Origin: Pocillopora damicornis
Taxonomy: Eukaryota
NCBI RefSeq assembly: GCF_003704095.1
Contig: NW_020846553.1
Coordinates: forward strand, 372,001 to 436,000
Direction of reading: 5' to 3'
Length of the DNA: 64,000 bases
Both the position numbers and the translations under genes were made by a program. The notes under the pieces were generated by a model that saw only the letters and a program-made list of their open reading frames with translations, was not told where the DNA came from and made no database searches. Shown piece by piece: positions 10,401 to 51,694 of this stretch. Position 1 is the stretch's first letter, and every line of letters begins with the position of its first letter.

Positions 10401-13400
10401 TAGACGCCTAACTTGTTTAATTTTTAACTTGGGGACCGCAAGTTTGTCAGGTTTAACTGGCTGTTGTCACCTCCCATTGATAAATTGTTACATACACACA
10501 TGCATAACGTTGCAGGGTCATCAAGTCTGATGTGAAGAAGGAAGGGGACGGTGAAACCCTTTTGACCCTGTCTCTGCGGAGTTCGCCACCGGTCACTATC
10601 ATTCCTAATATTGGCAATCCTTAGCTTGAGTCTAAACACAATGACCTAGATCAGTGTTATGATTGGTTAATCAAGTGCAATAAATGATTATTTTATGCAA
10701 GTTCCCAATTATAACGTTACTGATTGCAAGGCAAAAAATTGGCGTGGAATGCAGTCTTAAATTAGTCTGAATTAACAGCCTTTGAGTAACCTCTGCGATT
10801 AATAATTTGTGAGAGATGTTTACCTGGGCACTCGTAGTTTCCACATTTCACTCTTTCCGTCTCGATACCATATACGTTCACATTGCCACCACAGGCCTTA
10901 GGGTTACCTGAATTGTAACAATAACGTTGGCGCTCTTTCATGCAATCTTTATCACAAGGCGTGAATCCCGACCACTGCGTCCAACCGTAGTTTTTTGCTG
11001 CATTGAAAGGAAGGAAATAATGAATTAAAGCTAAAAAAAAAACTCATAACTTATCCTTAGATGTTACGATTCCTGCACATTACTTCCCGTGAATAAATAA
11101 CACGTCTCCATTACGCAAATCTAGGTTTTTCTATGCCTACTCTCGATCAATTTTGCAGTAGTTGGATAAGAAGTGTTGCTTTTAGCTCTCTTCTGTGAGA
11201 GATGCCTTGGTTGTAAAACGCATTTTATACAAAGCGCAATGTAATGGTTTCACAATCACAATATACGGTAGTTATTCACAGCTACAATGTGATAAGTCAA
11301 CGTAACAATTCTGAATTTATGGAGTTTCATAGGACTAGGATAGGACGAAAACAGTCTTGCTCTGAACAAAAATATGAACACTGAATTGACTAGCAACGCT
11401 ACCAAAAATGATTTCAGTTTCAGCGGCACAAATCAATTATGAATATTACATTCCCCTTTGTTGGGATGATTGCTATCCAACATTTTCAACAGGTTACCTT
11501 AATTGTTCACGAGTACTCACGTATACATTTTTGTCATCCGACTGCACGAAGTAGAGCACAAATAACGCGCGAATAGGGTACAAATATCCTGCGATGTTGT
11601 ACGGTCAAATGGACAGTTGGTTATTTTATACTGTTAAAAAACCTGTTTTCTTCTCAATTCGTTTTTCTTTTCACGCTTTGTGACAAATGAGTAGAGAGAT
11701 AGCAGAAAAAAAAAGCAGTCCGATAATAAATAACTTATTTGAAGTTTTGGTGTGTGGTATCGCTGAGCGATACAACGGGTTCGTCGAAATACGGCACAAC
11801 TCGTAAAAATTACTTAGCGATTCTGCACACCAAAACGTCCGATAATATATATATTATATATAGAATAAGAACAAAACATTACGTCCCCGTCCATGGTTAG
11901 ACTCCCAACCTTTATCATAGGGAGTTCGGCGGGCTACTTATCCTATTTCTCGCTCTCTGTTTCCCAGGAGTAAAACTACTCATAAATCTGTGCCTATACG
12001 TCTGCCTCTGTCTATAACATTTATGTTACAGACACAGTCTTGCTCATGAATTACTTACTTTCGCAATCATACAAGGCGTTGAGTTCAACTATATCCTGAG
12101 GACTCATCGTTTTCTGAGGCGTTCCAAAGTCCTTCCATCCGACTGGCTTATCAAACCTGATGATCGTGTCCAGTCCATTCTTCGTAAAAGCTCTCCTGTC
12201 ATAGTGCATGATGGATTGAAAATCGTAATTTTTTCCAATTTTGTCTATAGTTTTGTAGCTATACTTGTCAAACTGGTCTGAAAATCCTGTAAAATAAAGT
12301 GGCACATTACAATTGTTATGGTTTTCCAAGGTTTCCCAGAGGCACCTTCATAACATCACGAATTTATGATCGGTCAAGACAAAAATTTTCGAAAGCGTTT
12401 ACCTCCTTGAGGTAGCGACATGAACAAGTACTAATCACACTTTATGATTCAAGTACTAATCACACTTTATGATTTCACTTCTTTACGAGGCCGAGGCATA
12501 AGAGAGGGGATTTTTTTAAAGGAGATACTGAAGCTTTTATGTGGGTGTGGTTGCCGATATCGGTGTAAACTCACCGTCGAGGATATTTTCCCATTTGATT
12601 TCAATATATCTGTCTCCGTCATCTCTTGCTTGCTCGTGAAAGAAGCATAAGAGAGAGGATTTTTTTTAAGGAGATACTGAAGCTTTTATGGATATCTAGT
12701 TGCCGATATCGGTGTAAACTCACCGTCGAGAATATTTTCCCATTTGATTTCAATATATTTGTCCCTGTCATCTCTTGCTTGCTCGTGAAAGAATCCTACA
12801 AATAGAGAGAGGCCAAAAGGGTAGATTACAAAGTCAATTGTTAAACTTAGGGAACAAGTTTTCAAAGCAAGGGTCAAATTATGCTATCTTATTTATCTCT
12901 GGCTAAATAGAGAATTCAAAGATTAGGTATTGGTAAAGCGTACTTTCTCTTTCCTTCTAGAGTATCGTCCGTTACGTGATCCGAATAAAGGACTGATTGA
13001 AAGAGAAGGGAACTGCGGGCAGTTTGAATTTTAAGACATCATTTTTCAGAAAACAGTAGCATGAGGCTCTTTTATACGAGCAAATCGAGTAAATACTGTT
13101 ACGATGACAACCAAAGCAACTGACTTTATCCAAGTATTTTACTTTTCACTCACCAAGAGCATGTAGTAATTCGTGTATGATGGTGCCTTCGAAGTCACAT
13201 CCTTGCCCTAGGGAAAGTTTCTGAGCTCCAGCCACAGCATAACTCTTTCCTACTTTAGATGAGCACCTACAAGCAAACGACAGAAGTTCAGATGAAAGCG
13301 TAGTGTGATCGTCCGGTTGACTGTAGTCCTAAGGAGGACGGTTGACGTTAGTTGTGATTGACGTTTCGCCAACCTGAGCGGAAGTCATTAGAGTCAAGGG

Positions 13401-16400
13401 GAATTAAAATTAGGACAACTGCCAACATTATCACATGGTAACATGTGGTAAGCTTACCATTGAAGTAGACATGCAATGAAAGAGTTTGAAAAATGGGAAA
13501 AAAGATTGGAAACCAACAAAACGCTTGTACCCTTCTTGTGGGGCGCAAAATCAAGTAAACACTGAAGCTAAGAAACAGACATTTATTTATTTATTTATCT
13601 GAGTAGTTTTCCTCTCTGTTTTTGTAATAAACACAAAATGAGAACTTCTTAACATAATTTAGTTTCTTATATATGATGTTCATATATTTACAGTCATTCA
13701 AAATTTAGTTCATAACTGAATAACAGTCTAGTAACAATTTTCAACGAAAAAACTTGAAAATGAAGCAGGCATTGAATAATGGGATTAAATGTAATTGTAA
13801 AACAACAATTCGCTCTATTGAAGACACAGACGACAAAAAGGAAACTATACAAGCCTCTTTCAGTTTTATATTGTACCCGAATGATTTTTCATTATCGTCT
13901 TCATCATCATCGTCGTTTTTGTTATAATCAATATAAAATCTCAATTAACTTACCTGCGGATATATAATGACAGCATGTTTTCAAAGCGAACTTTATTTAA
14001 CCTACAATTACATCACAGACACTATAGCACAATAAAGTTATGCTGCGGAAGACTTTACCCGTCATCATTATCGAAGAAGATGTAATTCTTCTGGCCGCGG
14101 TATGGCACAAACCGTATGCACGATACTCTATGAAACATCTGGATAACTTTGTTAAGATTTCCCACGATGTGTCCTGAAAAAGGGAGAATAGGACTATTAC
14201 GGAAAAAAAAAACAGTAAATAACATCTTTATTAAAAGTAACGAGGGCCAGATCTAGAAGTAAAAGTGGATTGGACAGTGTCCAATACAAAGAAGGTGTGT
14301 TACGCTGATCAATATTTTCAAGCACACTTTTGGATCTCTTGCAGATTTTATTAACCCTTCGGAGCCAATTGCTTGTTACGAGTGTGAGTGTTGTTTCAGA
14401 AGATTGGTGTTCATGATGAGAGACTCTGACTCTTCTTCTAAATTGCAAACAGTAGAGATTCATTGTTCTTGGCGAGTGCGTAAACTTTGGTTCTGCGATG
14501 TATCAGAATTGCCAGGTGCTTTTCAGCATTCATCATAACGACGTAGTTGTTTTATGATGCAGCTACATTTCAATTTTTTCGTGAATTTCAATTCTCTTAT
14601 TTGGAAATGCCGTAGTACGGCATTTCCAAATAAGAGAATTGAAATTCAGCACTTACTCATGTACGATGGAATTTTATACGGAATCACCCTTGACGTCCAA
14701 AGTCGTTTGCGAGTTCTGAGAGCATTTCTCTTCGTTCTCGCCTGGCCGGTTTTGCAAGTCTTTCCAGGATGTAGTTCTTCGTAAAGGTCACAATCGAGTA
14801 TCATGTCTCCTTGATCAAAGAAGAAACCTTCCGCTACAAGAAACAAACGAGAAATCAAGGTGGTGTAAATTTTCATACAAGTTTAATTTTTTTTTTAATC
14901 AAAGCTGGCTCCTTGGAGGTGAATAATACTCGACTATTCTCATCCAAGATAACCAATCAGCACGCGGAAAGGCATACCTTCATATAAGTGGTATTTAACA
15001 TCAACGAGTATTTCACTGTGACACAAACGATCAGAAAAAGGGGGAAACTTTTCAAACTTACCTTCATTCGTCGTTTCGATCATTTCTTGTACATTGCCTT
15101 GATACTCTCGTTTTTCTTGAAGTTGCCTTTTCTCTTGGCGCTTTCTCCAGTGGGCAAGATTGACGGCGATTATCCGTCCCATCGCATTATCATAGTCTGT
15201 AGGTTCGCAGAGTAAATAAATTAACCGTAGGTGAAGGTCAATAGCAACTTTTAAGTCCATCTTTATTAAAACAAAAAAGGGTCCCTTCCAAGGGGAGGTT
15301 TTTAATTAGCTTACTCTCCCAGCCCTCCCTCATCCTGGCAAGAATTAGATTTGATCAATGATCACCAAACGAAACAAAGTTCTTTGAACAAGATATCTAC
15401 AAAACGAAGTGGTATTTTCTTACTGCTCGTTGAAGAAAATTCCTTAATAAATTTGTGAGGTGTGAAGCTCAGCTGCAAAATGTGCGTGCATTTCCCATCC
15501 GACGGGTATTCCTGTCTTTTTTTTAGGTATCAATAGTTAGTCGTTTGAAACACAAGAATGTTAGAATTGACGACATACATACATACCGAGCTTTTTTGCG
15601 ATGGTGCAAATATATCCAAGCGTAGGACTGCGCGGTGCGACTGATTCAACATTCAAAGAATTTTTGAAGATTTTTCCCGAGTGTCCACCACACAAACCTA
15701 CAGTTTTTTTTTTTTTTTTCCAGCACAGATATTTCTCAGTCATATCGTTACTAACCTTTGTTTGCTACTTCTGTTATCTCGGGGTCATTCTCTATGGCTT
15801 TGTCGTCTGGGTACCGCCCTGCAAAGCAACATTAAATTTAGCATAATAAAATAAAGAAAATTTAAAAATAATTTTCGCGGCTGGAGACTATTCAGCTCCA
15901 TACGTTTCACATCATGTACATTCGCATACATTTGAATTTCTATCATTCAACGACGCGCGTTTGCATACCATAAAATGGTCTCATATGATCGTTTTTCTGG
16001 TATTTTGTGAAAAAGCAGGTGGATGTGAGAGCAATTCGATTCAGAAAAGGTAAATTTATGTTTAAAAAATCATTTCTTATGAGAAAATAAAGAAAGAATC
16101 ATAACAGAAGGAAATATTGAGTAGAAATTCAAGCCAAGAAAAATATTCTGGAACCATCTTTTAAGTGGGAGTATTTCTCATGGTTTATTCCTTTAGAATC
16201 AACGGATTCAGTGGGGTCTTTAACCGTCTTTCACTGTAGTTAAATACCTGCATTGTATCTTTACGATCCCCGCGAATATTAAAATAGGTAACCAGAATTT
16301 ACATGAATAATGAATATTAAACTTGATTTTTTTTTCAAAGTAGAAAATTTATATTGTTTATTTTTATGAGTAACTTTAAGTCACACCGTTCATCATGTAA

Positions 16401-19400
16401 ACCGCCTGAGAGAAATATTTGTCCTTTTACCATGTTTAGTATACATTATTTGCTTGTTTTGATTACACTGGTGTTCAGCTGTAAACTCATCAAGGTCTCT
16501 GGGTTGAAGATAACACCGCGGAATCAGAGCAAGGCGTCAAGAAATCAGTCACTGGAAAACCATTTTACGGCGTGGATACATAAAAACAGTGCCATAAGCT
16601 TAAATAATCGTCCGACCAAGCGACACTCTTTTGAGCGATTAAATGTGGACGATAACGTTGAATCCAATTATGAGACCTCATACGACAAACAAGATATGGA
16701 CGATTTTGATGTGAACAATGCAGGAGAGAAGCTACAGACAAGCTTCAGACAAGTGATTTTAGATCCAAATGAGGCGAATACTTTACGAGTTCCTCATCCA
16801 TATCCTTTCCAGCCAATTCATGTACGCCGTGACTGGCATCCCCAAATAGAACCGCTGGAGATATTCCCAAATCCCATTCAAGTTCATCATTACAGGAAAG
16901 TTCCAGTTGCAGTTCAGGTGCCGAGATATGAAATTGTTCCAAAACCTTTTTATGTTCCTTTAAGAGCATCGCCAGATTACAGTGTGCTGCACGTAGATGT
17001 TTATCACCCAGGTTGGTTTTGAGATTTTAAGGGCACCATATTTTAATAGTATTATCATTTAACAATATTCGAATCTCCCCATCACTCAAAAACCGATATA
17101 TTCGAGTGGCCAGCTTCCATCTCATCATCGATTGACCTAAAATTTTTAATGAGTTGCTGCGTAGTCAGCGAATTAAGTGTAACTACAGAAAGCAAATGGT
17201 TCATAGCTATATAGCTTCTTGATTTGTAAGTTTCGCAACTATGTCAGAGCCAATTATTTACCTATTTGCATACAGCTTCGCTTGGTTAGATGTTGGTGCC
17301 CAAGCTAACTTATTACTAATGGGAGAAAGACATCTCTCACAGAAGTTCCATTGACTATTTCATTACCACAGCTAATCCTTGCAGAAATGGCGGCCTTTTG
17401 CTATCCAGTCGCTTTGGCTATCATTGCTTGTGTTCAAAGGATTACAAAGGAAGGTTTTGCGATGGTATGTATACTACGCTTAAAGCTTTTTTAATTTATT
17501 GAAGAAAAAAATTTACGACATCAATTTAATTGATTTCTCAATCACAACGTTCCGTTAACATTGGTTTCTAGTTCATGAAAACTCATCAAAGTTATTTTTC
17601 ACGAAAATTTATTAAATATAATACTATTTTTTAAAATTTTTAAAATTTTTTTCCAGTTTATCTGTTTGATATTTTTGTTTGTTCATCGATAGCCAAGTTA
17701 TACTGCTCTTCGAGCCCATGTGAACATGGTGGAAAGTGCGAGGAAATAGAGAACAATTATCAATGTCAGTGTCCAACAGGATACATGGGTTACAACTGCG
17801 AAGGTAGATTATTAGCTTAGAGGCATTTTTACTTTTTTAAAGCAAAGACTTTGGAATGTCTATTTTCATATAAATCTGTGAAGAATAAAGATGTTATTGT
17901 TGGCATTAGTACCTGTTGTAAAGAAATCCCATATCGTTCAGCTACAGAGGTGTTGACAAACGATTGAGCTTAGGTTTCAAACACAACGAGACTCCCATTT
18001 CCATGTTGCTGTTGTTTTATTTTTTTTTCTTGAAATCGTTACCGCGTCCACGTATTATTCTCTATTTAATACTGCTGTATAACATATACATGCGTTGATT
18101 TACTCGGTTTTAGAGAAGAACTTTTGTAGACCAAACCCGTGTAAAAACGACGGACAGTGTGTGGAGACAATTAGCAATTACAAGTGTTACTGCAGATCTG
18201 GATTCACAGGGAAGCATTGCGAAGGTAATCTGTAAATCAACAATTTCATAGGAATGGAATGGGCTTGCATCTTTTAATAAACTTACGACAGAAACATCGA
18301 TGCTGCATTTACCTGACCTTCCTAGTACTCAAATATGTCAAACTTTTGCACTTTTACCACGTTGTGGGGAAGATTATGAAAATGTTACCCTGAAAGCTAA
18401 GATGACATTATTTAGTTGACGTTATGAATTTTAAAGCTATTACTGTTTTCTTACAGACTTAGATTACTGTGATCCAAACCCATGTCAACATGGCGGCACA
18501 TGTCAACAGAGACACGCCTCTCACGAATGCATCTGCAGAGAAGAATTCAAAGGAAAACTGTGCGAAAGTAAGGCGAGTTTACAGATCCCGTCTTATGACT
18601 GCCCAGTCATTTGAATCATTCAACACCAGTTTATTTATACTGACTGGGAGATAATCTTAGTTCAGTTTTGTTTATACATTGTTTTGAAATACTTTTGGCC
18701 CAATTGAAATACGTTGTGTGCGTTTTTTTCCTATTCAATCGGTTTGCCAATTTTTACATTTACACAGAGAAACGAGTGTGTCTTGCTAATCCGTGCAAAA
18801 ACGGCGGCGAATGCGTTGAGGATAACTCCAATTATCCCTGCATATGTCCGATGGGATATAGTCCGCCATATTGCAGAGGTGAGCACGTTTTCTAACGACC
18901 TGATATACAAAGTTATACCCCTTCACTTCTCTGCTTTCAAAATTTCCAAATACATAAAAATATTTAAACGTAGTTCTTGGAGTTTTTCCTAAGTCACGAT
19001 GTGCTCTGTGCTTAGTAAAAATTTCTTATTTCATCTTTATTACTTTTTCTTTTCAGTCCATGTTTGTGACTCCAACCCCTGCCTAAATGACGGTAAATGC
19101 GTTCCGGGGAAAGCAGGAGGGCACTGGAAATACCAGTGCATTTGCTCCCTCCTTTACAAAGGAGAAAATTGTGAAAGTAAGGAAACACTATAAAAAAAAA
19201 AATGAAATGACAATCTTACGAGGAATTCTTTTCAGAATTGTTACAGGCCTCGTGAACCATATCAGCCAAATTAATTCACATCTTTCTACTTTATTAGTTC
19301 CCAATCCTTGTGTAACAAATCCGTGTTTACATGGTGGAAGATGTATTGATACTTTTAGCAAGTACACAAACTTTCCAAAGGACTGGGACATAGGCTTTTT

Positions 19401-38400: not shown

Positions 38401-39038
38401 TTTGTGCGAGATGTATGAAGACAGTACATCTTAAGTTTGCGCTTCGTTCAAAGTACAAACTAAGGGTCTCAACACAAATTTCAATCCTAAAGTAAGTGGT
38501 CCTATTGAGTCCTTTTGTTCTTCTTTAATTTTCCGTCTTTTATCTAAATATTGAATTGTTTTCATGTTCTACACAAAGAGGCGTCAGGCTTTCAATTATT
38601 TCTTTATCTATGAACATTAACCCAAAGTGTTTTGAAATTGGTTTCAAAAATCTAATATGAGAAAACAAACTCACTGTCATGAATATGCACATGTAAAATG
38701 TGTTCAGCAGTTTCCTTCTTGACTGGAACAGCAACCGGGTAATCTTTGATATGCTCGATGTGAATTGGTAACGGAGCTTCGGAGAAGTGTGGTCCTTCGT
38801 AACTAGAAATTAAAGGGTTGAGAAGATTCTTTCGTGTTCCTTTCACCGCTACACCTGTTTCCTTAGACTTCTTGGACAGGTTCGGAGACCTCGAGGATTT
38901 TAGTCTTCTTGGAGTACTGTTTCCAACTTTGTCTGTGCTATGCTTGCGAGATACTTTCTCAGCTGTAAATTTTCCGTAGCTTAAAGAGGGTAAACAAATG
39001 AGACAAAGCACAGCCAACTGTTGGGCCGAACAACGCAT
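29494..39038 (-). CDS. Secreted multi-EGF-repeat protein with His/Pro/Val-rich N-terminus (EGF-B); 3' end uncertain
   Basis: Exon 1 38675-39038 ([22 protein letters not shown]; ends HILHVHIHD). Then exons at about 38061-38156, 37577-37687, 37343-37453, 36805-36914, 36166-36273, 35936-36071, 35571-35741, 35011-35107, 34482-34597, 33693-33805, 33202-33324, 32300-32443, 31505-31615, 31142-31255, 30105-30230, 29783-29882, 29538-29624. Stop at 29494 if the last exon reads through, or near 28888 if it splices. Confidence 0.9.
30450..30708 (-). mobile_element. Degenerate tRNA-derived SINE-like fragment
   Basis: Minus strand of ~30645-30708 reads tgtggctgagtggcgagggc...ggtcccgggtttcagtcct, a decayed tRNA-like head with A/B-box resemblance. 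Extent of the body is approximate. Confidence 0.45.
31790..31960. repeat. Interspersed repeat fragment; related sequence at ~63400-63530
   Basis: gtgaatatccaccaattccatctacacttcggtgaat resembles the reverse complement of atttaccaaagtggaggtggctagtgagggatattta at ~63425-63460. Confidence 0.45.
32670..32980. mobile_element. Probable non-autonomous interspersed repeat (GC/CpG-richer intronic insert)
   Basis: Composition shift in an EGF-B intron, with internal palindromic motifs (gtccgtttttgaacggac; acggacctcgctgcgctcggtccgt). Family not determined. Confidence 0.4.
33848..33978. mobile_element. ~130-bp palindromic MITE
   Basis: Arms tatctgggcaactacccacctacccctccctaacccaaca and tgttgggttaggggaggggtagatgggcagtttcccagata are near-perfect reverse complements. 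Confidence 0.8.
35762..35905. repeat. Imperfect ~55-bp direct duplication flanking a 13-bp tandem repeat
   Basis: agagcacttcattaaaatattgttagacgaa...aaaatgctttgatac versus agagcacttcactcaaatgttgttaaacgaa...aaaatgctttaatac; gtgataacaggcg x2 between them. Confidence 0.75.
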
Positions 39039-39361
39039 TTTGACTCCCTTTTGAAGATTGCCAAATTGAAAGTCCACTGTTTTCGTGAAGTTATTAGTTG
39101 AAAGTCATTTGGTTCATGATTTATTGATGCTAATTCCTTGCTTCAGAACCTCCTTTCATGAAGACAGCAATCGAGTGACCTGTTTCATAAACAATGCGAA
39201 ACAAGACAAGAAAACCTTTTTTGGGACAGTCACCAGTTTAATTTCCCAAACGGCTGGTTCTAAGTATTCCTTTTTTTCCGGGTCAAGTTAGCTTTTTCTT
39301 CCAAGATAAGAAGTTCCACAAATACCCACACAACTAAAATAAAATATTATATATAATAATA

Positions 39362-39571: not shown

Positions 39572-40815
39572 CACGATAATTGTTTCATTTATATACTGAG
39601 AACGGTGAAATAAATTTTAAAGAATAATTTCAGAAGGTTATCTTGATAATCTCAAGTTGATTAAGTGGAAAGAGAAAGATACTTTTAATATACATAGGAG
39701 ACGCTGCCTTTCTAAATCATTTTTAACATGATCCTTTGTTTAAAAAAAATATTTTTTCGATTTTGCCATTTATTCTTTGAGTCTAATAGTTTTCTTAAAT
39801 CATAGCCTAAGGGCTAAAAGGCTTATACACTGGAGGAATATCATAGTCTATTCAAATTGGTAAGAAAACAGTTTTCGCAACAGAGGAATGAAAAAGAGTG
39901 ATGTTCATTAAGAAAAAAAGGCAATTGCATAATTACAACGTATGCACTGGTCTCTCTCTCGTGATCTGACCCGCTGATAAGCGACATTACACTGGTAAGC
40001 CTCTTTACTAATATATCGCCCGCATTTCAAAATGACGTTGCAGACCGGGTTTTGTTTGGTTATAACAGTTCTTGTTGAATGAGGACAGGTGGCGTGCTTT
40101 TGCTGTCGGGCTAGGCGTTATAACGCACCTTTTGGTTAAAATTACCCTGTTAGTGCTTTTATCAACCGCCCAATGACCATCCGTTTTGCATTTTTAGTGA
40201 GCACGGATTTGCTGCAGACTGACATTATTTCTTTTCTGTTCGTTTGGTTACCGTTACGTGTTTTAACAATACCACTAAGTTTCGAATTTACCGTAAGTTA
40301 CTAACATTCACACGCGGCCTCTATATTTGAAGTTAACATATATTTGAGGCCATGTATTTTTATTGAAATCCACGCCGACGATTAGACAGAAGAAAAGATT
40401 CAAAGCCGAATTACAGTATCAACAATCCCACGCAATATAATCTCAAAGATGTCAACAAATAGTTCTTTATTAAAGAAGACTTTATAATTTAGATGACACT
40501 CTTTGTTTGTTTGTTTCTTTTTTTCATTTACACTATTTACTAATTTCGAATTATATTTGACCAAGCTTTTTATCTATATTGTTGTGTGAATAATGAATTG
40601 TGCTATCAAAATAAATCTTTCGGTTAATTCCTTCTTATTTTCTATCACATCAGCTCGGAATTTACTTGATGCAATTTGTGTTGATTCTTCTTTCAGTCCT
40701 TTTTATCCTGAAAATCAATCACGTACAAAGGAAATAGTAAGAATATGAAATAGTAAAACGAAATTTTCAATCAAGAAAAATAGTTTCCTCGAATGCAACT
40801 ATTCTTTTCAACATG

Positions 40816-43800
40816 TTAATAACCATACAGAGCCCTGTAATATGGTCTGTAATTCGACCTGTAATATGGTCTGTAATTCGACCTGTAATATGGTGGGTAA
40901 CGATAGTTTACAGGATAGTCAGAATACTGAGGATAATCCATGGAAGGCGGCCCATAAGATGTCGGAGAGGGTGGAGCAGCAGCAGATGGACTGCTGATTG
41001 GAGGTGGTGGACCGGGTGCCGGTGGAAGAGCAGGTGCGACCGGCGGTGGAGCCGCGGAAGGCTGGGGAACAGGTGGTGGTGCAGATGGTACTGGTGGAGG
41101 AACGGGGGGAGGAGAGGATGGTTGTGGTGGTGGGACAGGGGGAGGTGGGGATGGCTGCGGGAGAGGAACGGGAGGAGGTGGCGATGGTTGCGGTGGAGGA
41201 ACAGGGGGAGGTGGGGATGGTTGCGGTGGAGGAACAGGGGGTGGTGGCGATGGTTGCGGTGGAGGAACAGGGGGAGGTGGGGATGGTTGCGGTGGTAGTG
41301 GAACTGGAGTTGTAGCAGGCGGCTGTGGGGATGGTACCGGAACTGGCGCTGAGGATGATTGTGTCGGGTTAATTGTACTAGGAATTGGAGGAGTAGGTTC
41401 GACTTCCTCTCCTTCTTCTTCCTCCTCCTCCTCCTCTTCCTCTTCATTTTCACCGTTGTGTATTGCGTAAACTGTCACACCTGTACGTCACAGTTAAAAA
41501 CAAAACAAAACAGAACAAACAAACAAAAAAAAAAAAAGAGAGTAGATGTTGTGGCTACGTTTTTCATCGTCAGTGATAACCTTTCATGTGTTGTTAGTGT
41601 TTCAACGTGTCAAGGAGCCCTGTTGTGATGTGTGTGTTATGTATACCTATTCATTTTATGTTTTTATGTCGCAGTCCGTGTAACCTTCCTCCAATCACCT
41701 CCACCACTGCTTAGTAAAAGGGATAGCTGAGTTGTTGAGGGTTAAATGAGTTTGAAAAAGAGCAGAGCAGCCCCGAACAAATATTGGTATCAGCCCCTCC
41801 TTTTCAACGGACATTAAGACGTAAAGCTAGCGGCCTTTGCAATATTCATATTATTAAATGTTAAGCATCTTAAACTTACAATTAGCAGATTGAGTCAGTC
41901 GTGCAGACTATTTAGTATTTCATTTTCCCATCAGTTTTACTTCGTTTGTATGGTGCATAGTACATTGCAGGGAGACCATACTGATGGGAAGACACTGGAG
42001 GGGCTGGAGGCGGCGGTAGTGGTGATGGCACTGGTTGTATTGGAGGAGGTGGTGGGTGTGGAGGCAACGGAGCTGAAAGAACCTTTGGAATTACTCGAAT
42101 TTGTGGAACTTAGTAAAATTTTCATTAAATCCAAAATGATACCGGTATGACGAATCTAGCAATCTAGTGAGCAAAGTAAAGATCTTTCTTGGGTAATTTC
42201 TAAGCTTTTTCACGTTCTAATTTCAAGCCATCACAAATAAAATCTATATCCCAAGCACTTTTTACTTTGGAGGTAGAAGAAATTAAGTAAATCCAAATTT
42301 TTACTTATTACTCTTTGATTAAGGAAGGTGAAAGTTCAGTCTGAAACCATATTTCTTACGTATGCAGGTGTTTCCTTGCATCTGATAGCCCGGTAGACAT
42401 TGACAAGCTCCTTGTAAACACGTTGAATAGACTGGACATATTGTCGGGCAGCGCTTGTGACGAGCTATAAAGCAAATTAAAATCAATGGTGTATTTTTAG
42501 CCTTCTATTCAATCTTAACTGCTTTATCAAATGAAGTCAACGACGTCACTTGCACCTTTCAGACGGTTATATAAACCGGGAAATATATTGGTAAAACTTC
42601 AACTCTTAGTCTGCAACGAGTTGAACCTAATCCCTATTTTCACCATAAAGTGTTCCTACACTGTACCATCTATACAGTATGCGGATTTAGTCTTGAGAAA
42701 CAGGTAAGTTAATTGCAAAAATGGAAGGAAAACGTACTGTAGACTGTTTTGATGGTTAAAATAACTTAAACTGGCGAGTAAATACTGGATCGTGCAGGTT
42801 GTTAGCATTGAATTAAAATTTGACTTTTATCTTGCCTTTTACACATTGATACCCTGTTCCTATGTAACCAGGCACACACTTGCAACGGCCTCTGACGCAC
42901 AAGGCGTGCACATCACACTTGGCACACTTATCAACTGTAAAATGAAGGAGCACAAACATTATAAAGTGCTCAATTTACTATTTTTGATTTTGAAGATGGC
43001 ATTTTGAGCTTAAAACTATCTTAACTGCTGACAGACACGAGATTCTCTCACAATGATACCAGAGATTGTTCTAAGTTTATGTGGCAAAGAGCCACTCTTA
43101 TATGAGTATATCAATTATTTCTGTATGTCATTCTTTGGCAAGTAAGCCCCGGAACTTCGTCCAGTTTCAAAAGGGTTAAACTGCCCCTCTTTTTAAATGT
43201 CCACAAATTAAAGTAAAATTAGCGTTTATTAAATTAACAACTGGAGAAGCTTAGCACCTTCAGAAGACAAAAAAAAGGAGACAAACAGTTTCGGTTTCGT
43301 ACCTTCACAATGGGCCCCTGTATATTGCTCATCGCAGTGACAGTCATATCCTCCGACAACCTGAACACAACTACCGCTGTTTAAGCAGGGATTAGGGTGA
43401 CAGTAGTCCTTGGGCTTGATAGCTGTTACAAAGTCGGTGAGACAAACGTGTGAGATGTACAAGAAAGAAAGCACTACTTTAAAGTCCATTTGATGGGTAA
43501 AAATATGACATCAGACCATAACACCTGTCGAGTTTTAAGAACGAGATTTTATTTAGCTGTTTGCTTCCCATAATACCTGTCAACAACCGGTTAGGTACTT
43601 CATGAAACACTCAATACTTGAGGCTATCATTGGGTCGGAGCCTTTGGGTGTCAAAAACATCTTTGAATACTTTGCATTGTCGTCAACCTGGGACGAGTTT
43701 TTTAATTCAAAAGGGAGAGTGTTTCTGAAACCCAAAGAATGCTTGTCATCACCAGTTTAAAGTATACAAAAAAATTGAACGTTTTTTAAGAGCCCACTCA

Positions 43801-46800
43801 TTAATCTACTCTTTCGAAAACTGCTTTTAAATGTGCTAAAAATAGTCTGCGAAGGCTGCCATCTTAATTAATCCAACAGAAAACATGGTTGAAAGAACTT
43901 AGGCTTCGACAGGATTCAAAGCCGTGCCTTCCTGACTGCAATCGCGCCTGAGTCATTTCAAGCGCATCTTGCTTTAAATTTCTCACAGATGTTTAGCTGC
44001 AAATCGAAATTAAGTGGTGATATAGGTAAAAGGACAAACAAACAAACAAACAAAAAAAACAGTACGTGGTGGTTTTTCACATCTTAGTCCCGTGTAGCCA
44101 GGCTGACAAATACAGGTTGGCGTATTCCCAACAGGTTTGCAGATTCCACCATTCAGACAATAACCGGGTGAGCAAATCGCTGTCGAAAAGAACATAAAAA
44201 ACGAAAAAGATTGATCAGACTCATTTTTAGGAGCTCAAGTAAATCTCTTTAATGTACTTGTTCATTGAGATAGGCTCAATCCTTCTCGCAAGGGTAAAGT
44301 TAGTAGCTTTATATATGTCTGACTGATTCACATCTTGGTCATTTTCACAATTTCGTTTCCTTGCCGACTCATTTTTGTTTGGTTTTTTTTCCAATCCACT
44401 GTATGATAGCCCAAAAGGCCGCTATTTGCTTAAACTTGAAATTGCTGCGTTATCCAAAAACATGTGTTCAAGGTTTTAATTTAGACAAAGGTCGTTTATA
44501 CCCAGTTTTCTAATATGTATATCATATCGTTAAAGTTTAAGACATTTTGACGGGCGTCCAGGCTTTTCCAGCGCTCATGAAGTCAGTTCCCCTTTCTCTT
44601 TTCTTTCCTTCGTTGTTATTTCTTTTTCGTGTGAGACGAGGTGATGGGAAACGAAACATTTTATGCACATGCCTCGGGTGAAGATGAGACATTTACGTCG
44701 TTTGTTGTTATAACTGCTTTTAAAGTGGATAGTTATGGCATAATTTCTCACCCTTTTCACAATTGGTTCCTGTGTATCCCTCTGGACAGCGACACTTGTA
44801 TGCTGTGTTACTATTGATATCCTCACAAGTTCCTCCATTCTGACAGGGGTTGGATAGGCAGGGATTATTTGTTCCTGTGCGAGTTGAAAGAGTTGAGTAT
44901 GATTTTCCACTTACGTAAAAGAAAAATTACACTTGACAGCCATGATAAACAGAAAATGCTTCATTACTTACTTCCTTTAGCGCATCCGTCGTCTCTTAGA
45001 TCCAATCCATCTTCACAGTAGCAATCACCTTCGGCGTCACATTTCTGTGCGAAAAGAGGAGGATTTGCCGAGGGGTTTCCTTTTGGACATCCACATTCTT
45101 AAAACCAAACAAAAATCTTAGAATTCGTAGCATAAAAATGCAGTTTAGTATCGATGGTACTCGTGGAGACAATCAGCAAGTGATCATCACTTAAGATGAT
45201 TTTGGAAAGAATTAGAAGCCTAGTCTCTGGCCGCAGCAAAGTTTTCCTTTACAAAAATTACCTAAGACGTTGCATTCTTTTAGCGCATAGAATTGAGCAG
45301 TATCACATTCTCTCACCTTGACAAGTTGGTCCAGTAAACTTGCCTTTACACTTGCAAACCACCTTTCCGTTTTCACTTTGACAAGTTCCTCCGTTCTGAC
45401 ACGGATCACTTTGGCACCCATCAATAGCTAAAAATATGTATCATAGATTTTTGTGAACCAGTGAAAAAATAACTTAAGTGAACGGATTAATCAAAATCAT
45501 TTCATGCAGGCCATGTTTACCATTTGTCAGGTAAAACGAGAATTTATTGGAGCTTGTTTCGTCGTGACCACAAATGCATAAAAGCTGGCCAGAAGCACAA
45601 TATTAGACAACATATAAAGTGAGGTTCAAAAAGTGAGGAAAGCAAGGATGCAGGTTAATACTGCTGGGCTCGATTGTTCAGCTATACTTTCAAAGGGCAA
45701 GAAGCGTTTCTTGAATCTTAAGAAAGATTTGTTTAGAGAGTTCCCAAAACCACTAAGTTTGCAATTTGAAAGCTAGAGAAAACCACGAACCTTTCGAAAA
45801 CTACAATAGCGATTACATGCAACAATTCAGATGCTGAATTCATACCACATTACTGAGCACCTTTAATCAATTGTCATGTGAACACGTTGATATTATGAAT
45901 TTTTTACTAGATTCCGGAAGATATCTTATTAAAATCATGCTTATCAGTATCTCAGTCTAAGAAAATTTATACGTACTCCAGTTCTTATCATAGACCTTGA
46001 TATACATTTTTGTGATCAGTTTTGTGCATACACCAGTTGAGAAATGATAGAAATCAGGTGACACTTTACGGTTGCACATATCGCTTTTTTGACATACGCG
46101 GGCGTCTCTAAAATATTCAAATGTCACCCACACAAATTGGATTTGGCATGAAAAAAGGTTTACTTACGAAGTTCGCAGTTTGTACCAGTGTATCCATTCT
46201 CGCAAACGCATTTGAAGCCGCCTTCTTGAGTTTGAATACATTTTCCATTATTTTTGCAAGGATTGGGGGTACAGGCATCCTTTTCTAAGGTATGATAAAA
46301 TCAAGACAAAATGGTTGCTTATACATCAAAAAGGACACCCGTTACACAGAAGTGTGATATAAGATATAAATGTGACAAGGAAAAAGAATTCGCATATACA
46401 TGTAAAAGGAAGTATACAGCTACCTTCGCAGTGCTTGCCACTTGTTCCTGGAGGACACTCGCAGTCATATTCTCCAGCACCAAGCTCTTTGCATTTAGCT
46501 TCATTTTTACAAGGATTTGGATGACAAGGATGCGGAATTTCTGAATGAACAGAAAGAGACAAGAAACAAAGGAAGAAAAACAGTTCTGTAAAGTCTTTAC
46601 ATTGCGCTCCTTAGCCTACTAGTAACTCTTCATTTTGGCGTTGCGGCACGTTCCTTCGCCTACGAGGTTCTTAAGAGTGCAGGCTATGCATCCGTCTTAT
46701 GGTTGTTTTCGTCGGCGTTTGAGTGTAATCATTCCTCCAGTAAATAGTAATTTTGTTTAGAAAAATAACGTGCTATTCCTTTGATATCGTGGATATCGTA

Positions 46801-49800
46801 AATGCGAATCCGACATTTATTCATGAAAAATAATGGTAGTGAAATGATTATCCACGAGTATGGTCGCCTAAAAATTGATTTTGTATAAAAATGAGGATGC
46901 TGATTCCAATCCTTTTAAAACAATGATAAAAAAGATGCAAATGACTACGGAGACTTACTTTTGCAGGTAAAGCCATCGCCATAATATCCTTCCACGCAAA
47001 GACAAGTCTGATTTATACATTTTGCGTTTATGTCGCAATGCTTACAGATGTCCACTGAAAAAATTTGAAAAGTAGAGAAACACTTTAGATTCACCAAATT
47101 CAATTTCGATTTCCTTCGACTTAAGTTATCGAATTTTACACTTTGATAGACTAATTCGCTCAGTTATGATTTTTCACTACATATCAATCTGTTTGTGGTG
47201 TGTTTTGTTTTGTTTTATTTGGTTTTGTTTTTTTTCATCTAACGGAGCATTCAACATATTCGGAATTGATCAAATGTTCGGTGCACTCTGACGGGTGAGT
47301 GTAAGCGTTTCTAAGACAGCCATAGGCCTCTACTTTTTATGATTTCTAATGGACGGTTATTGACCTTTGATAGATAAAAGCGTTACGGTACATTTCCCAT
47401 ACGCCTCTATATATAATTAACAATTTAAAACATTTTCTTGTGAATGTGTCTGTTTTTTCGCCGGTGTAGATTCTTGGGTTCCTATGTCGTGTGACTACCT
47501 CCTACCTTCACAGTTTGACCCAGTATAGCCCGAGCGACAAATACATAGGTAATGTAGGTGGCCATGATTCCAATTTTCAGGATACGTGTTGTAACCGCTA
47601 TAAGAGTCGATGCAGATACCGTCATTTAAACACGGTCGGGTATAACATGGATGAGGAACTGAAAAAAGTATTGAAAGAAGAACCGTTTCAAGAAGTGGGT
47701 AAAATTTTCATATCATCCGTGCGTTGCCAAAAACACTATCTGCGACAAAATTAAATACCACACGCTATTTACGTCACTATTTTTAGGGAATTTTTAAGAA
47801 TAAAGTATAGAAAGGACTGCATTTTGCTATAACACCCTTTCCCACTGCACAATAAGAGAATAAAGTGGGATATTGTACTGGGATGGAGGGGTAAAACTGA
47901 TCTGGTGCGAAGAAAAAGTAGGTTATCTTCATATCTAGAATTGTTTAGCAACTGGAAACGTTTAAGTGCAAGAAAAAAATATATATATATATATCTACGT
48001 ACTTTCACACTTATTTCCTTTAAACAGAGGAGGACAAAAACACTTGGAATGTCCAAAAGATACCCTGCAGTGACCACCATGCAAGCAAGGGTTGGGGTGA
48101 CACACATGACCTGTCAATCATGAAAAGGAAAATCATTCCATAACTATTGCATGATGAATGTTAGTATCAATCTCCTAGCATTCTATCCCAAACGCTGCAG
48201 TCTGATTTGCCACCTTACTAAGTATTCTATATCATGATAAATGATAATTAAAGCTGGTAGCCTAACGTTGTGTAGTTTAAAACAGTACAAGATAGAGACG
48301 TGAGCCTGTTTTGTTGTTATGTATGGAAGGACAAGTAGATCTGAATAATAGACTAATTCGATTATTCGCTCTCGATTTCTGTACATGATAACTGATTCGG
48401 ACTTTACCCTCGCCAGCCATCACGCCAGAAAAGTCTCCAGGCTATAAGCTAAGTCTTCCAGAAAAAATAAACAAAAAGGAAGCCTTTTCTTTTCATTAAG
48501 TAAAAGCATAACCGTGGACATATTTCCTCGAGAGGCCAGGTTCAGATTCGGCTTATTGTTTGTTGTTATTATCTGTTTTATAGGGTGAAAACCTACTTTC
48601 ACAGTTGCTTCCGGTGTATCCCAGTCTACAAGTGCAGTTATATCCAAACCCATCCTCGTGGCAGGTTCCGGCATTAAGACAAGGGTTGGTATAGCATTGC
48701 TTTGTTTCTATAAGAACAGAAAGACGTGGGGCATGAAAATGCTTCCTCTACGCCAAAAATCTGTAGAGTCGCTGTACCAAACATTTAAACAGTGAATCAA
48801 AGCAGTTGGTTCGATTAGAGAGGAGCGATAACAATATTTTCATGGATGCTAAATGGTACATATATGCAAACATCTTGATGTCATATTCATACCCTAAAAA
48901 TTTATGGATGAACAAACGTCATGATTATGAATTAATTTAATTACACCTGTGAGGCTATACAATCTAGTTTTAAGGTTTCAAGCCTATTTTACTTTAGAAG
49001 TCCAAAAATAAATTTCAATTCTTTTTTAAAGATCACTTAAAACCCGAAAAGGAATTTTGGCATAAGGTTTTCTGGATTTTAAATGCAGAAAATTTCAAAC
49101 TTTTGCTTAGAATAATGAACTTTGCTATTATAAGCCTTACCTGTGCATAGAGTTCCTTTGAAAGATGGAGGACAAATACAGATGTAATTATCACCAGCAG
49201 TCTGCTGACAAGTTGCGCCATTTTTGCAAGGATTTGGATCACACTTGTTTATGGCTGAGAAGAGAAGTCAATCAGAAAATTTATACCCCAGGCCCACTCA
49301 AACAGATGTGCAATTTATAACCTCCATACCGCGAATTAGCTTGAAATTTATATTAGACAATTTTAAGTTAGTCTGTCTGATCTATCGACCGCTAATTAGC
49401 TACTTAGTTAGTTAGTCAGTCAGTCTGTCAATTAGTCTGTTAATCAATTAGCTGGTTAGCAACTTGGTAAGCTAGTCAGTCCAATGGCATCATTTAATCA
49501 TTTATTTAGCATGTTAGTTAGTGAACTAGTCACAATCTACGTTTTAGTCTTGTGACTGTAAAAGGATTTAACCGAAAGTACACTATGAGCGAACCACAGC
49601 AGTCATTGTTTCAAAGTGGTACTTACAGTCACAATGTATTCCTTTAAATCCTTCTTGACAGATACAGGAGAACTTTTCTTCAGAATCCGATCTAGTGCAT
49701 ACCCCCGAATTTTTACAAGGGTTTGGGTGACAAGGATTAGGCTCTGTAACATGAATCAAACGACAGGTAACCAGGGTGAAAAACAAAATGGTTCATTGAG

Positions 49801-51694
49801 TCGTTTATCAAGTGACTCATCAAAACTTAAAAGCCGATGACGAACTGAAACCAAGCTCTATCTCCAGCGCAATACTTTTAGTTATACTTGAAGTTTCCCT
49901 TAAGAGCCTCCAATATATTTTTATATCGAGGTGTGATGTTAAGGTTGTGTTAAGAAACTGCCTTTCACATTACGATGGTAAAGAGTAAGATCGACTATTT
50001 CAACAAAGTTTAGCCATTATTTAAGAACACCGCGCTTGACCATCTTCAAACTTTTAGCCACGTTTTTTTTAAAAATGTTACTTTGTCTTAATATAGCGAA
50101 GAATTCCTATGGCTAACAGTGAAAATAACTTCATGCACTGAAAAAAAAAACCCGTGGAGATATTTTGAGGTTTCAATGGTTATCTAGATGTTCGGCTTAA
50201 GTGATACTTCATTTCAGTATCAAGTTGAAGTGTTTTCATACCTTCACATACCACCCCGAGAAATCCATGAGGACAACTGCACTTAAATGCGCCAGAAATC
50301 TCAGTACATGTAGCTCCATTCTTACAAGGGCTTGAAGCGCAGTAATTTCTATCTAGAAGGAGACGGTTGGGAGAAAAACAGGAAAAAAAAGAGAGAAGAT
50401 TTTTAGTTTCTCAAACTGGTGATACTGTATAAGGAAAAACAAATATTTACCTTAAACAGACGTAAAACATTTTACCTTCACAGTTCTTGCCCCGAAATTC
50501 TTTTTGACAAATACAGAAGTATTCATGGGGTAGCTTTACGAAAATCCCTCCATTTTGGCACGGATTTAGGTGGTCTGCAGAAATAAGAAAATTACAATAT
50601 TAATTTTAAGAATTACATCGAAGGAATTTCTGTTTCCGTCCGGCGTAGTAAGTTTGTTTTCCGCTTAATTTGCTGCTAAATGGAACATGGCAGACAGTAA
50701 AGGATTGCTTTTACTAAAATTATTCCACTTAGTTGCGATGTATTCACGTTCGTTATAACTAACTGAAATAATTGCATTTTAACTTCTTGTTCTCTATTCA
50801 CTCTTGAACTACCGCTGTGCTTTTCAACCAAAACTATAACAAAATGCGGGATTTGTTTCAGTAAATGATCTAGAAAGTCATCATTAAAACTTACACCTTG
50901 GGCTGTACGCCTAATTGAATGTGAAAACATTAAATTTAATAGTTGAAACACCTTGAAACTGGTTGTAAGTTCAACAGTAAAGCAAAATGCGAAAAATAAA
51001 TCACTCATCATTCGAGATATTATTTGAGCTCGAAGTCATCAAACACATTATTCAGTATTTATGGTACAAATTTGAAATTTCATCTTCAAGGAGGGATATC
51101 TACGGCCTGGACTTAATCATCTCTACTTAAAAGATGACACCGAAACAGACGAATTTCGCGTGTAGAGGAACCTTCTCCGAACGAGCGAGTTTACCACCTG
51201 TTTACACCCAGTGAGAACTTTCACCTTCACCTCTTTTTCTTTACACAATGTTAAATAATCATTTTATACTTACATTTGGGGCGAAGATGAAGATGGGAGA
51301 CGTGGACATGAGGCGCTACTGGGTATGGTACAGGATATGGCCTTGGGACGTACTGAACGGACACAACAGGGTACGGCTTTGGTACCAGGTGAATGTGATG
51401 ATTTGCGAATGGCGGCGGTATTACATTCAAAGGGTGTGGGAAAAAATATCTTCGACTTCCACTCTCGTCTTTTACTGCCTTCGTTGATGTGGAATTTGCA
51501 ATAATACTGTCCTCTTTAGCAGTAAAGCTGTCGTTATTTGCCCCTCCAACGTTGACTTTGTGGACTTTGCTTTCAACTTCATGGGCTTTGGTCTCCTTGA
51601 GGGTTACACTCTGCCGTTTACCAACAACAAGAAGGCTTGGATTGCAACAAAGGCAGAATAGTTGGTATACAGCTAGAAGTTTAAAGTAAAACAT
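40816..51694 (-). CDS. Secreted multi-EGF-repeat protein with His/Pro/Val-rich N-terminus and poly-Glu/Pro-repeat/Tyr-rich C-terminal tail (EGF-C)
   Basis: Exon 1 ~51274-51694 ([17 protein letters not shown]; ends [12 protein letters not shown]). Module exons at about 50477-50574, 50242-50352, 49627-49743, 49141-49254, 48597-48707, 48003-48110, 47506-47658, 46958-47054, 46424-46540, 46168-46284, 45317-45427, 44972-45097, 44753-44874, 44066-44179, 43303-43422, 42836-42934, 42360-42464. Pro-rich exons 41941-42108 and 40816-41480 (TAA). Confidence 0.9.
40834..40893 (-). repeat. Coding 24-bp tandem repeat (YRSNYRPY) in the EGF-C tail
   Basis: cctgtaatatggtctgtaattcga repeated about 2.5 times. 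Confidence 0.9.
41095..41300 (-). repeat. Coding 33-bp tandem repeat ([11 protein letters not shown]) in the EGF-C tail
   Basis: About six copies of ggaggaacagggggaggtggggatggttgcggt. Confidence 0.9.

Follow-up and report, generated by a model that had tools for sequence, protein, structure and literature searches.

Two alternative last exons, apparently ancient, in a coral poly-EGF gene: one encodes a proline-rich arm with a tyrosine- and arginine-rich tip

The stretch of DNA analysed here (the window) is 64,000 nucleotides of the coral Pocillopora damicornis (RefSeq assembly GCF_003704095.1, contig NW_020846553.1, forward-strand positions 372,001 to 436,000). With the neighbouring stretches of the contig included, it holds a tandem cluster of five genes (A to E) in which a first exon that resembles a signal peptide, as read by eye, is combined with EGF-type exons. 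A first-pass annotation had drawn attention to the 3' end of gene C, which it described as a tail built of poly-Glu, a proline-rich rod and a Tyr/Arg-rich terminus. We find that this tail is almost certainly encoded by a real, spliced, coding last exon of gene C, and that this exon is one of two alternative last exons, which the annotation had overlooked. The parts of gene C are as follows.

51274..51694, minus strand: exon 1, with a signal-peptide-like start (read by eye), a propeptide that runs to Arg-Arg at residues 81-82, and a His/Val/Pro/Tyr motif
42360..50574, minus strand: 17 Cys-rich EGF-type exons that encode a 643-residue core with 100 Cys (RNA joints, of which 15 are among those listed of 19; gene model; core counts; Pfam)
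42360..42464, minus strand: last EGF-type exon, with a phase-1 donor for either last exon (RNA joints, model)
41912..42072, minus strand: short alternative last exon, 53 residues: a Pro run, a Tyr cluster, Lys-Arg, a short extension and a stop (RNA cover, model, tail comparison)
41661..41720, minus strand: conserved element of about 55 nucleotides between the two last exons (local score 55 against each of two coral loci, L006 and L010)
40816..41480, minus strand: long alternative last exon, coding part: a phase-1 acceptor, a 221-residue tail that includes the split codon, then a stop
41452..41480, minus strand: short hydrophobic head of the long exon, recognisable in corals and Nematostella (12-residue shuffle test against Nematostella isoform X1)
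41398..41451, minus strand: poly-Glu block, a run of 11 Glu with 15 acidic residues in all (composition count)
41068..41298, minus strand: seven Pro repeats of 33 bp (11 residues), the core of an uncharged spacer (Tandem Repeats Finder (TRF), unit count, AlphaFold)
40819..40959, minus strand: Tyr/Arg tip, 46 residues with 16 Tyr and 6 Arg, the last residue Tyr (composition, dN/dS)
40451..40815, minus strand: 3' untranslated region of the long form, with AATAAA starting at 40471 (RNA cover ends near 40451; signal search)

The long last exon of gene C

Gene C was modelled from RNA joints together with GT/GC-AG splice signals, giving 18 core exons plus a tail. In every one of the four RNA runs, its intron at 42836/42835 (minus strand) is spliced from a GC donor; the P. 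damicornis protein pdam_00007743 is 100% identical to exon 1 and departs from the RNA-based reading beyond 42836/42835 and again midway through the EGF array. In the full-length proteins P0001 and P0011, Pfam (E<=0.1) returned EGF-type families only, and it returned no family for either tail or for exon 1. The gene product is likely secreted.

The long exon begins at 41480, directly behind an AG; with its phase-1 start it brings the model to 1008 residues, open throughout with no internal stop. The RNA evidence consisted of contigs assembled from bulk RNA in four runs from four studies, in which isoforms are not ranked by depth. These contigs covered the long exon in every run, with a depth of 0 in 40000-40416 and in two intron bins. 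In two of the four runs (X3 and X15), among the loose ends listed, a contig that leaves the gene at the last EGF exon continued into the start of the long exon, agreeing with its first 28 letters at 27 of 28 positions, and the next-best site in the window had 11 mismatches. A spliced contig of another coral from a metagenome collection (L005) likewise joins the last EGF exon in frame to a long tail; it matches four consecutive exons of genomic locus L006 with the short exon skipped, is identical over 104 residues to the Orbicella protein P0011, and ends inside the repeats. The loose ends and L005 together bear out the proposal that the exon is spliced to the EGF array of gene C (EGF-C in the annotation).

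The open reading frame at 40816..41487 (minus strand) holds the acidic run and the Tyr-rich C-terminus of the long tail, both of which read as the annotation had given them. Between 41066 and 41295, TRF detected a 33-bp unit repeated 7.0 times with 83% matches. The annotation's count of about six 11-residue repeats was fair: SPPPP is present in five of the seven units, three of which match the 11-mer exactly, while SSPPP takes its place in the sixth and the seventh has degenerated. The spacer as a whole comprises 147 residues, 56% of them Pro, with no charged residue and no Tyr. The annotation was also right that the two ends are oppositely charged, since the first 40 residues carry a charge of -15 and the Arg-rich tip has 6 Arg versus 2 acidic residues in 46. 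The DNA of the tip contains 2.5 copies of a 24-bp unit (TRF, 40834-40894). A search of the genome found a single copy of the long tail and a single copy of the exon-1 motif.

Selection on the tail was gauged from L006 and L010, the only two of eight loci in which genomic DNA past the last EGF exon displays tail exons; the other six were left out (L005 is spliced and stops within the repeats; five do not extend as far as a tail exon). The long tail is 79% identical to both. By a simple Nei-Gojobori estimate, the ratio of nonsynonymous to synonymous change (dN/dS) against L006 and L010 was 0.12 and 0.09 for the whole tail, 0.05 and 0.03 for the repeat zone, and about 0.03 for the Tyr/Arg tip. 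These ratios are rough, because the aligned sequence is of low complexity and synonymous change with respect to the window is almost saturated. Among the variants listed in the RNA, the eight that fall in the long exon (seven from the 40 listed of 104 rows, one from the loose end) comprise five silent changes and three Ser/Pro swaps. Judged by these ratios, the long exon is under purifying selection. Splice phase and dN/dS support the frame that the annotation had chosen, and they exclude the alternative frames (the Arg/Trp, Gly, His/Leu and Ser/Thr open reading frames). Since the exon is spliced to the EGF array, in frame and conserved, the testable outcomes that the annotation had named as telling against itself were not seen.

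The dimensions of the tail vary within limits. SPPPP occurs 5 times in the window, 7 times in L006, 8 times in L010 and 0 times in Nematostella; the poly-Glu run is 13 residues in L006, 12 in L010 and 6 in Nematostella X1; and the spacer measures 118-175 residues in all four long tails compared.

Two alternative last exons and their age

The short exon lies downstream of the last EGF exon and upstream of the long one, and RNA contigs cover it. The short form is modelled at 840 residues, with a tail of about 29 Pro-rich residues followed by the Tyr cluster and Lys-Arg. The four of 19 RNA joints beyond those listed would, we infer, be two missing core joints and two tail joints, which fits the count. 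All 8 of the 8 short tails that were compared, including those of Orbicella, Montipora, Actinia and Nematostella, finish with Tyr-(x)-Lys-Arg, and in L006 and L010 the EGF exon, the short exon and the long exon follow one another in the same order as in the window.

The same pair of tails is found in Nematostella, where isoforms X1 (long, XP_048589944/XP_048589945 being the X1/X2 pair) and X2 (short) are identical over 778 residues and then continue with Arg (X1) or Pro (X2), the codon at which they diverge being the split codon of the coral genes. After its Arg, the X1 tail presents a coral-like head and poly-Glu, followed by a stretch of Pro/Thr, a Pro repeat with a unit of 8 residues and, at the end, a Tyr-rich part; the X2 tail starts with Pro and ends in Tyr-Tyr-Lys-Arg. 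When the first 12 residues of the long-tail head were compared with X1, 1 of 20000 shuffles reached the observed score. The order of blocks is kept in Nematostella despite a different repeat unit, one richer in Thr/Ser/Gly. The cores are orthologous and colinear, with 100 Cys and 66% identity over 645 aligned residues, and 23 of 27 matched bins fit gene C best. In a tree limited to 12 rows, which excludes further retrieved proteins (for the most part isoforms and fragments), eight rows form an orthologue clade with support of 98/100. Orbicella X2 (XP_020626730) has the orthologous core with a short tail.

We therefore consider it very probable that the two-way last-exon switch is ancient and is common to corals and the sea anemone, whose lineages split roughly 500 million years ago. 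A recent origin of the long exon by duplication within one lineage is ruled out by the Nematostella isoforms and the L006 and L010 loci. The RefSeq isoforms already exist as automatic annotations under automatic names only ("notch homolog", "fibropellin-1-like"), and the Nematostella repeat among them is of 8 residues rather than the 11-residue SPPPP unit. In the literature searched, which leaves most subscription papers outside it, we found no published account of a conserved two-tail switch, and none of six identifiers that were looked for; the switch itself is apparently undescribed.

The conserved element between the last exons is G/A-rich and recurs at about 5021-5082 in L006 and about 8438-8503 in L010, with surroundings that are not conserved. 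Its score of 55 compares with maxima of 44 (L006) and 37 (L010) in 200 shuffles each. It is preceded by AG in all three loci, and the short peptides that it would encode resemble one another, although the one in L010 stops early. In L006 and in L010, 0 of 200 shuffles matched the pairing between the element and the short exon, versus 17 of 200 in the window. For the long exon the outcome was similar (12, 2 and 9 of 200 shuffles across the three loci). The element may be a splice regulator, a 3' untranslated-region element or a tiny third last exon.

Two further features of the tails were observed. The short tails of P0003 (Montipora) and P0023 (a coral) end in Tyr-Gly-Lys-Arg, versus Tyr-Lys-Arg in other species; an end of the former type is the usual signal for C-terminal amidation. 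In addition, a six-residue Tyr/Phe motif occurs both in the short tail of Actinia X2 (P0005) and in Nematostella X1 (P0031), where the long tail ends, a hint that the two last exons may share one ancestor.

Relatives, site of action and proposed mechanism

Plant extensins combine Ser-Pro3-5 repeats with interspersed YxY and VYK cross-link motifs, hydroxyproline, arabinosylation and isodityrosine. The long tail resembles them in having repeated SPPPP, within the Ser-Pro3-5 range, and Tyr in a likely secreted protein. It differs from them in that VYK occurs 0 times, Tyr is confined to the tip and the whole is attached to an animal EGF array. Moreover, YxY occurs twice in the last 45 residues versus 4.6 times in shuffles (both positions are common to three corals), so that an enrichment of the extensin type was rejected. 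The tie to extensins that the annotation had drawn does not extend to membership; the likeness is convergent.

A similar verdict applies to mussel adhesive proteins. Mfp-2 is an EGF-repeat cohesive protein, Mfp-3 is a small, free Tyr/Arg-rich peptide, and mussel Tyr is converted to 3,4-dihydroxyphenylalanine (DOPA). Gene C recalls Mfp-2 in its EGF repeats and Mfp-3 in the composition of its tip. However, Mfp-3 and Mfp-5 are small stand-alone peptides whereas the tip here ends a 1008-residue protein, and we found no sequence relation and no mussel-type relative of the tip, so that the annotation's link to mfp-3 cannot be taken as membership either. When the Tyr/Arg end was compared with longer proteins (310 candidates), none matched at E<=10, which is weak evidence; HMMER with the last 71 residues against 1.84 billion representatives gave one match, to an unrelated repeat protein through the Pro-rich part; and for the Nematostella junction region the ESM Atlas gave EGF/Dumpy clusters only, under 0.9. 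Sea-urchin fibropellins carry a CUB domain and a C-terminal avidin-like domain besides their EGF repeats, neither of which Pfam found in P0001 or P0011. Minicollagens, which are components of the capsule wall, have a propeptide that ends in a dibasic site and rigid polyproline segments, as the gene C protein is predicted to have, but they contain Gly-X-Y and polymerise through Cys-rich domains; the long tail has no Cys, no run of two or more Gly-X-Y and 2% Gly. A polyproline capsule protein, CPP-1, is reportedly present in Hydra, and nematogalectin is said to be a further alternatively spliced nematocyte gene.

The relatives that bear most directly on the site of action come from cnidocytes. 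The cnidocyst matrisome contains several fibropellin-like and poly-EGF proteins that are likely adhesive or fibrous, and six clustered Nematostella genes (NV2.5916-5918, 6438, 6439 and 6441) account for 22 marker rows, all 22 of which are cnidocyte states such as early, nem.1 and nem.2; the other five NvFp-like marker rows are three of digestive gland and two of cnidocytes (PMC12549020). NvFp-like-2 and -4 to -8 resemble the cluster described here in being clustered EGF-only genes, five of the six labelled Cnidaria-specific, for which the authors suggest a bioadhesive or fibrous cnidocyst role; tails, alternative last exons and processing sites are not described in the available part of that paper (PMC12549020). 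In Hydra, the nematocyte structural genes nb001 minicollagen, spinalin/nb054 and nb035 are alternatively spliced, with variants that differ in C-terminus or in length of proline repeats; those sequences are unrelated to gene C and are described within Hydra, whereas the gene C switch is common to corals and an anemone (PMC2687796). The propeptide of minicollagen-1 is cleaved before capsule entry (PMC10014300), and EGF-like proteins are mentioned in polar capsules (PMC5566210). Nothing on gene C was found in the available portions of PMC3517583, PMC8093662, PMC13581030 or bioRxiv 10.64898/2026.06.16.732747. By analogy with these systems, we regard a nematocyst location of the protein as probable.

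An AlphaFold run on a three-row alignment (predicted template-modelling score 0.17) gave residues 61-130 of the long tail a predicted local confidence (pLDDT) of 86-92 with no helix or strand, and mostly <50 at both ends. The model is compatible with a repeat zone that forms an extended polyproline-II rod between flexible ends. The annotation's picture of a rigid spacer that presents an adhesive or cross-linking tip thus survives in part, with a nematocyst now a likelier setting than adhesion to a substrate. We propose, with a probability of roughly 55%, that the long exon, a spliced and conserved alternative last exon, supplies the end of a cnidarian poly-EGF protein that is probably secreted and built into nematocysts, where a sticky Tyr/Arg tip would be borne on a predicted stiff Pro arm.

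Contacts of the Tyr-Tyr and Tyr-Arg type are familiar from phase-separating and adhesive proteins. In the proposed mechanism, a proprotein convertase would remove the N-terminal propeptide at Arg-Arg and trim the short tail at Lys-Arg; because such an enzyme would cut at dibasic sites, both forms would end in Tyr. Splice choice would determine how far the Tyr sticker stands from the EGF rod, about 29 versus about 174 residues, which corresponds to a reach of about 9 nm for the short form versus about 46 nm for the long form at 0.31 nm per polyproline-II residue, and would also add or omit the acidic block. The tips would link molecules by Tyr-Tyr and Tyr-Arg contacts during condensation of the capsule matrix, oxidative cross-links (dityrosine or DOPA) being a possible later step, and poly-Glu would bind cations or basic partners. 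We lean slightly towards cohesion of the tips by Tyr stickers, a view that draws on analogy; DOPA in the tip is doubtful. More tentatively, and with the odds against it, a last-exon switch that predates the coral/anemone split might tune nematocyst mechanics through the arm length of a Tyr-tipped poly-EGF cross-linker, using non-disulfide chemistry in a convergent, extensin-like manner, with the inter-exon element sorting the forms to capsule types or to wall versus thread.

Several observations weigh against the nematocyst reading or its parts. The tip has a dN/dS of 0.49 between L006 and L010, on few changes, and is conserved to Nematostella by composition only (113 residues with 18 Tyr, 10 basic and 7 acidic). 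The short-exon joint of P. damicornis is absent among the 15 of 19 RNA joints listed, and the proteins returned for Montipora, Actinia, the octocoral and Hydra include none with a long tail, though this does not show that those animals lack it. The tables searched held no accession or sequence link from XP_048589944/5 to an NV2 gene number, and flanking genes were no help. Two matrisome tables searched contained no peroxidase or tyrosinase, though such enzymes are perhaps simply unlisted there; and tyrosine cross-links in nematocysts were not reported in the literature searched. NvFp-like-5 and -6 were detected, more so in primary polyps, in mesoglea isolates that are stated to exclude nematocysts, and the poly-EGF genes NV2.24285/24286, a tandem pair labelled Cnidaria-specific, are markers of mucous gland cells in adults (PMC12549020). 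Finally, a 22-EGF "Fibropellin-1" is 1.74-fold up in the pedal disc of Exaiptasia (PMC6626399).

The mucous-gland and pedal-disc observations favour a different account, in which gene C encodes a gland-secreted glue or mucus protein of the pedal disc or of larval attachment, an Mfp-2-like cohesive EGF rod with a DOPA adhesive tip on the long form. The genome also has 18 tyrosinase-family matches, and placement of Tyr beside Arg is typical of mussel interfacial proteins. However, none of the 18 lies on the contig of gene C, no mussel-type relative of the tip emerged, and NV2.24285 and NV2.24286 fall in one orthogroup, whereas C and D are old paralogues on separate tree branches, like the cnidocyte clusters with their separate orthogroups. 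Neither DOPA nor tyrosinase occurs in the available text of the pedal-disc paper (PMC6626399). We judge this account unlikely, and a second one somewhat more so, namely that the long tail is a passive mucin-like extension (hydroxylated or O-glycosylated) whose Tyr ends serve as secretory sorting or packing signals rather than as stickers. The 25-33 Ser/Thr in the spacers of long tails, the differing Nematostella repeat with its greater content of Thr/Ser/Gly and the low predicted confidence at both ends of the tail would suit such an extension, but the 11-residue unit is held between coral families (dN/dS 0.03-0.05) beyond what a generic mucin stalk would need, and spacer length stays within 118-175 residues in all four long tails. 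Least probable of all is a protein of the mesoglea or epithelial matrix, or of the skeletal matrix with a Ca2+-binding poly-Glu for mineralisation: the mesoglea peptides and the block of 15 acidic residues speak for it, but the candidate Nematostella genes are cnidocyte markers at the RNA level, and the occurrence of the acidic block in Nematostella, an anemone that has no skeleton, makes a skeletal role less likely.

The strength of nematocysts is attributed for the most part to networks of minicollagens joined by disulfides (PMC2687796), and the role of the many cnidocyte poly-EGF proteins is only guessed (PMC12549020). The gene offers a specific handle on that role, with two natural ends that differ in spacer length and acidic block and that would both end in Tyr, the short form after the presumed trimming. 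Its orthologue lies in Nematostella, where exon deletion and isoform-specific probes are routine, so that splice tuning of capsule or thread mechanics and tyrosine chemistry are both testable. The modular build of the tail could, in addition, guide the design of wet adhesives.

The gene cluster and minor observations

Relatives of the cluster occur in corals, anemones, an octocoral and Hydra. In an old Nematostella gene model, the first exon scores higher with gene D (179) than with gene C (149), and the remainder is gene C; because the model starts like D and continues as C, the same tandem C/D pair is suggested in Nematostella. The stretches that adjoin the window add the start of gene D and the fifth gene, E.

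Genes A to D have a His/Val/Pro-rich motif directly before the first EGF, which contains Tyr in A to C and has no Pfam match where tested. The motifs lie at the following positions.

51274-51460, minus strand: His/Val/Pro motif of gene C
16327-17022, plus strand: His/Val/Pro motif
38652-39104, minus strand: His/Val/Pro motif
L003:1919-2272, minus strand: His/Val/Pro motif, in a neighbouring stretch

A dibasic site precedes the motif in 10 of 10 family proteins compared, and for the motif of gene C strong conservation extends to anemones and an octocoral. Such a motif might act as a head that binds metal or brings about oligomerisation.

Gene E (L003:4468 to L004:9492, plus strand, past the right end of the window) is a longer poly-EGF gene whose tail ends near a Lys/Arg cluster. 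Its last exon encodes a Pro/Ser/Ala stretch and then 70 residues rich in Tyr/Arg/Asn, with 9 Tyr and 15 Arg/Lys; the design of the tail, a Pro/Ser/Ala stretch followed by a Tyr/Arg-rich part, therefore recurs within the cluster. Gene D has an internal Gly/Ser/Pro-rich exon at 59225-59082 (minus strand) between EGF exons, and a metalloprotease gene with astacin, TSP1 and MAM domains (8073-12347, minus strand) adjoins the cluster.

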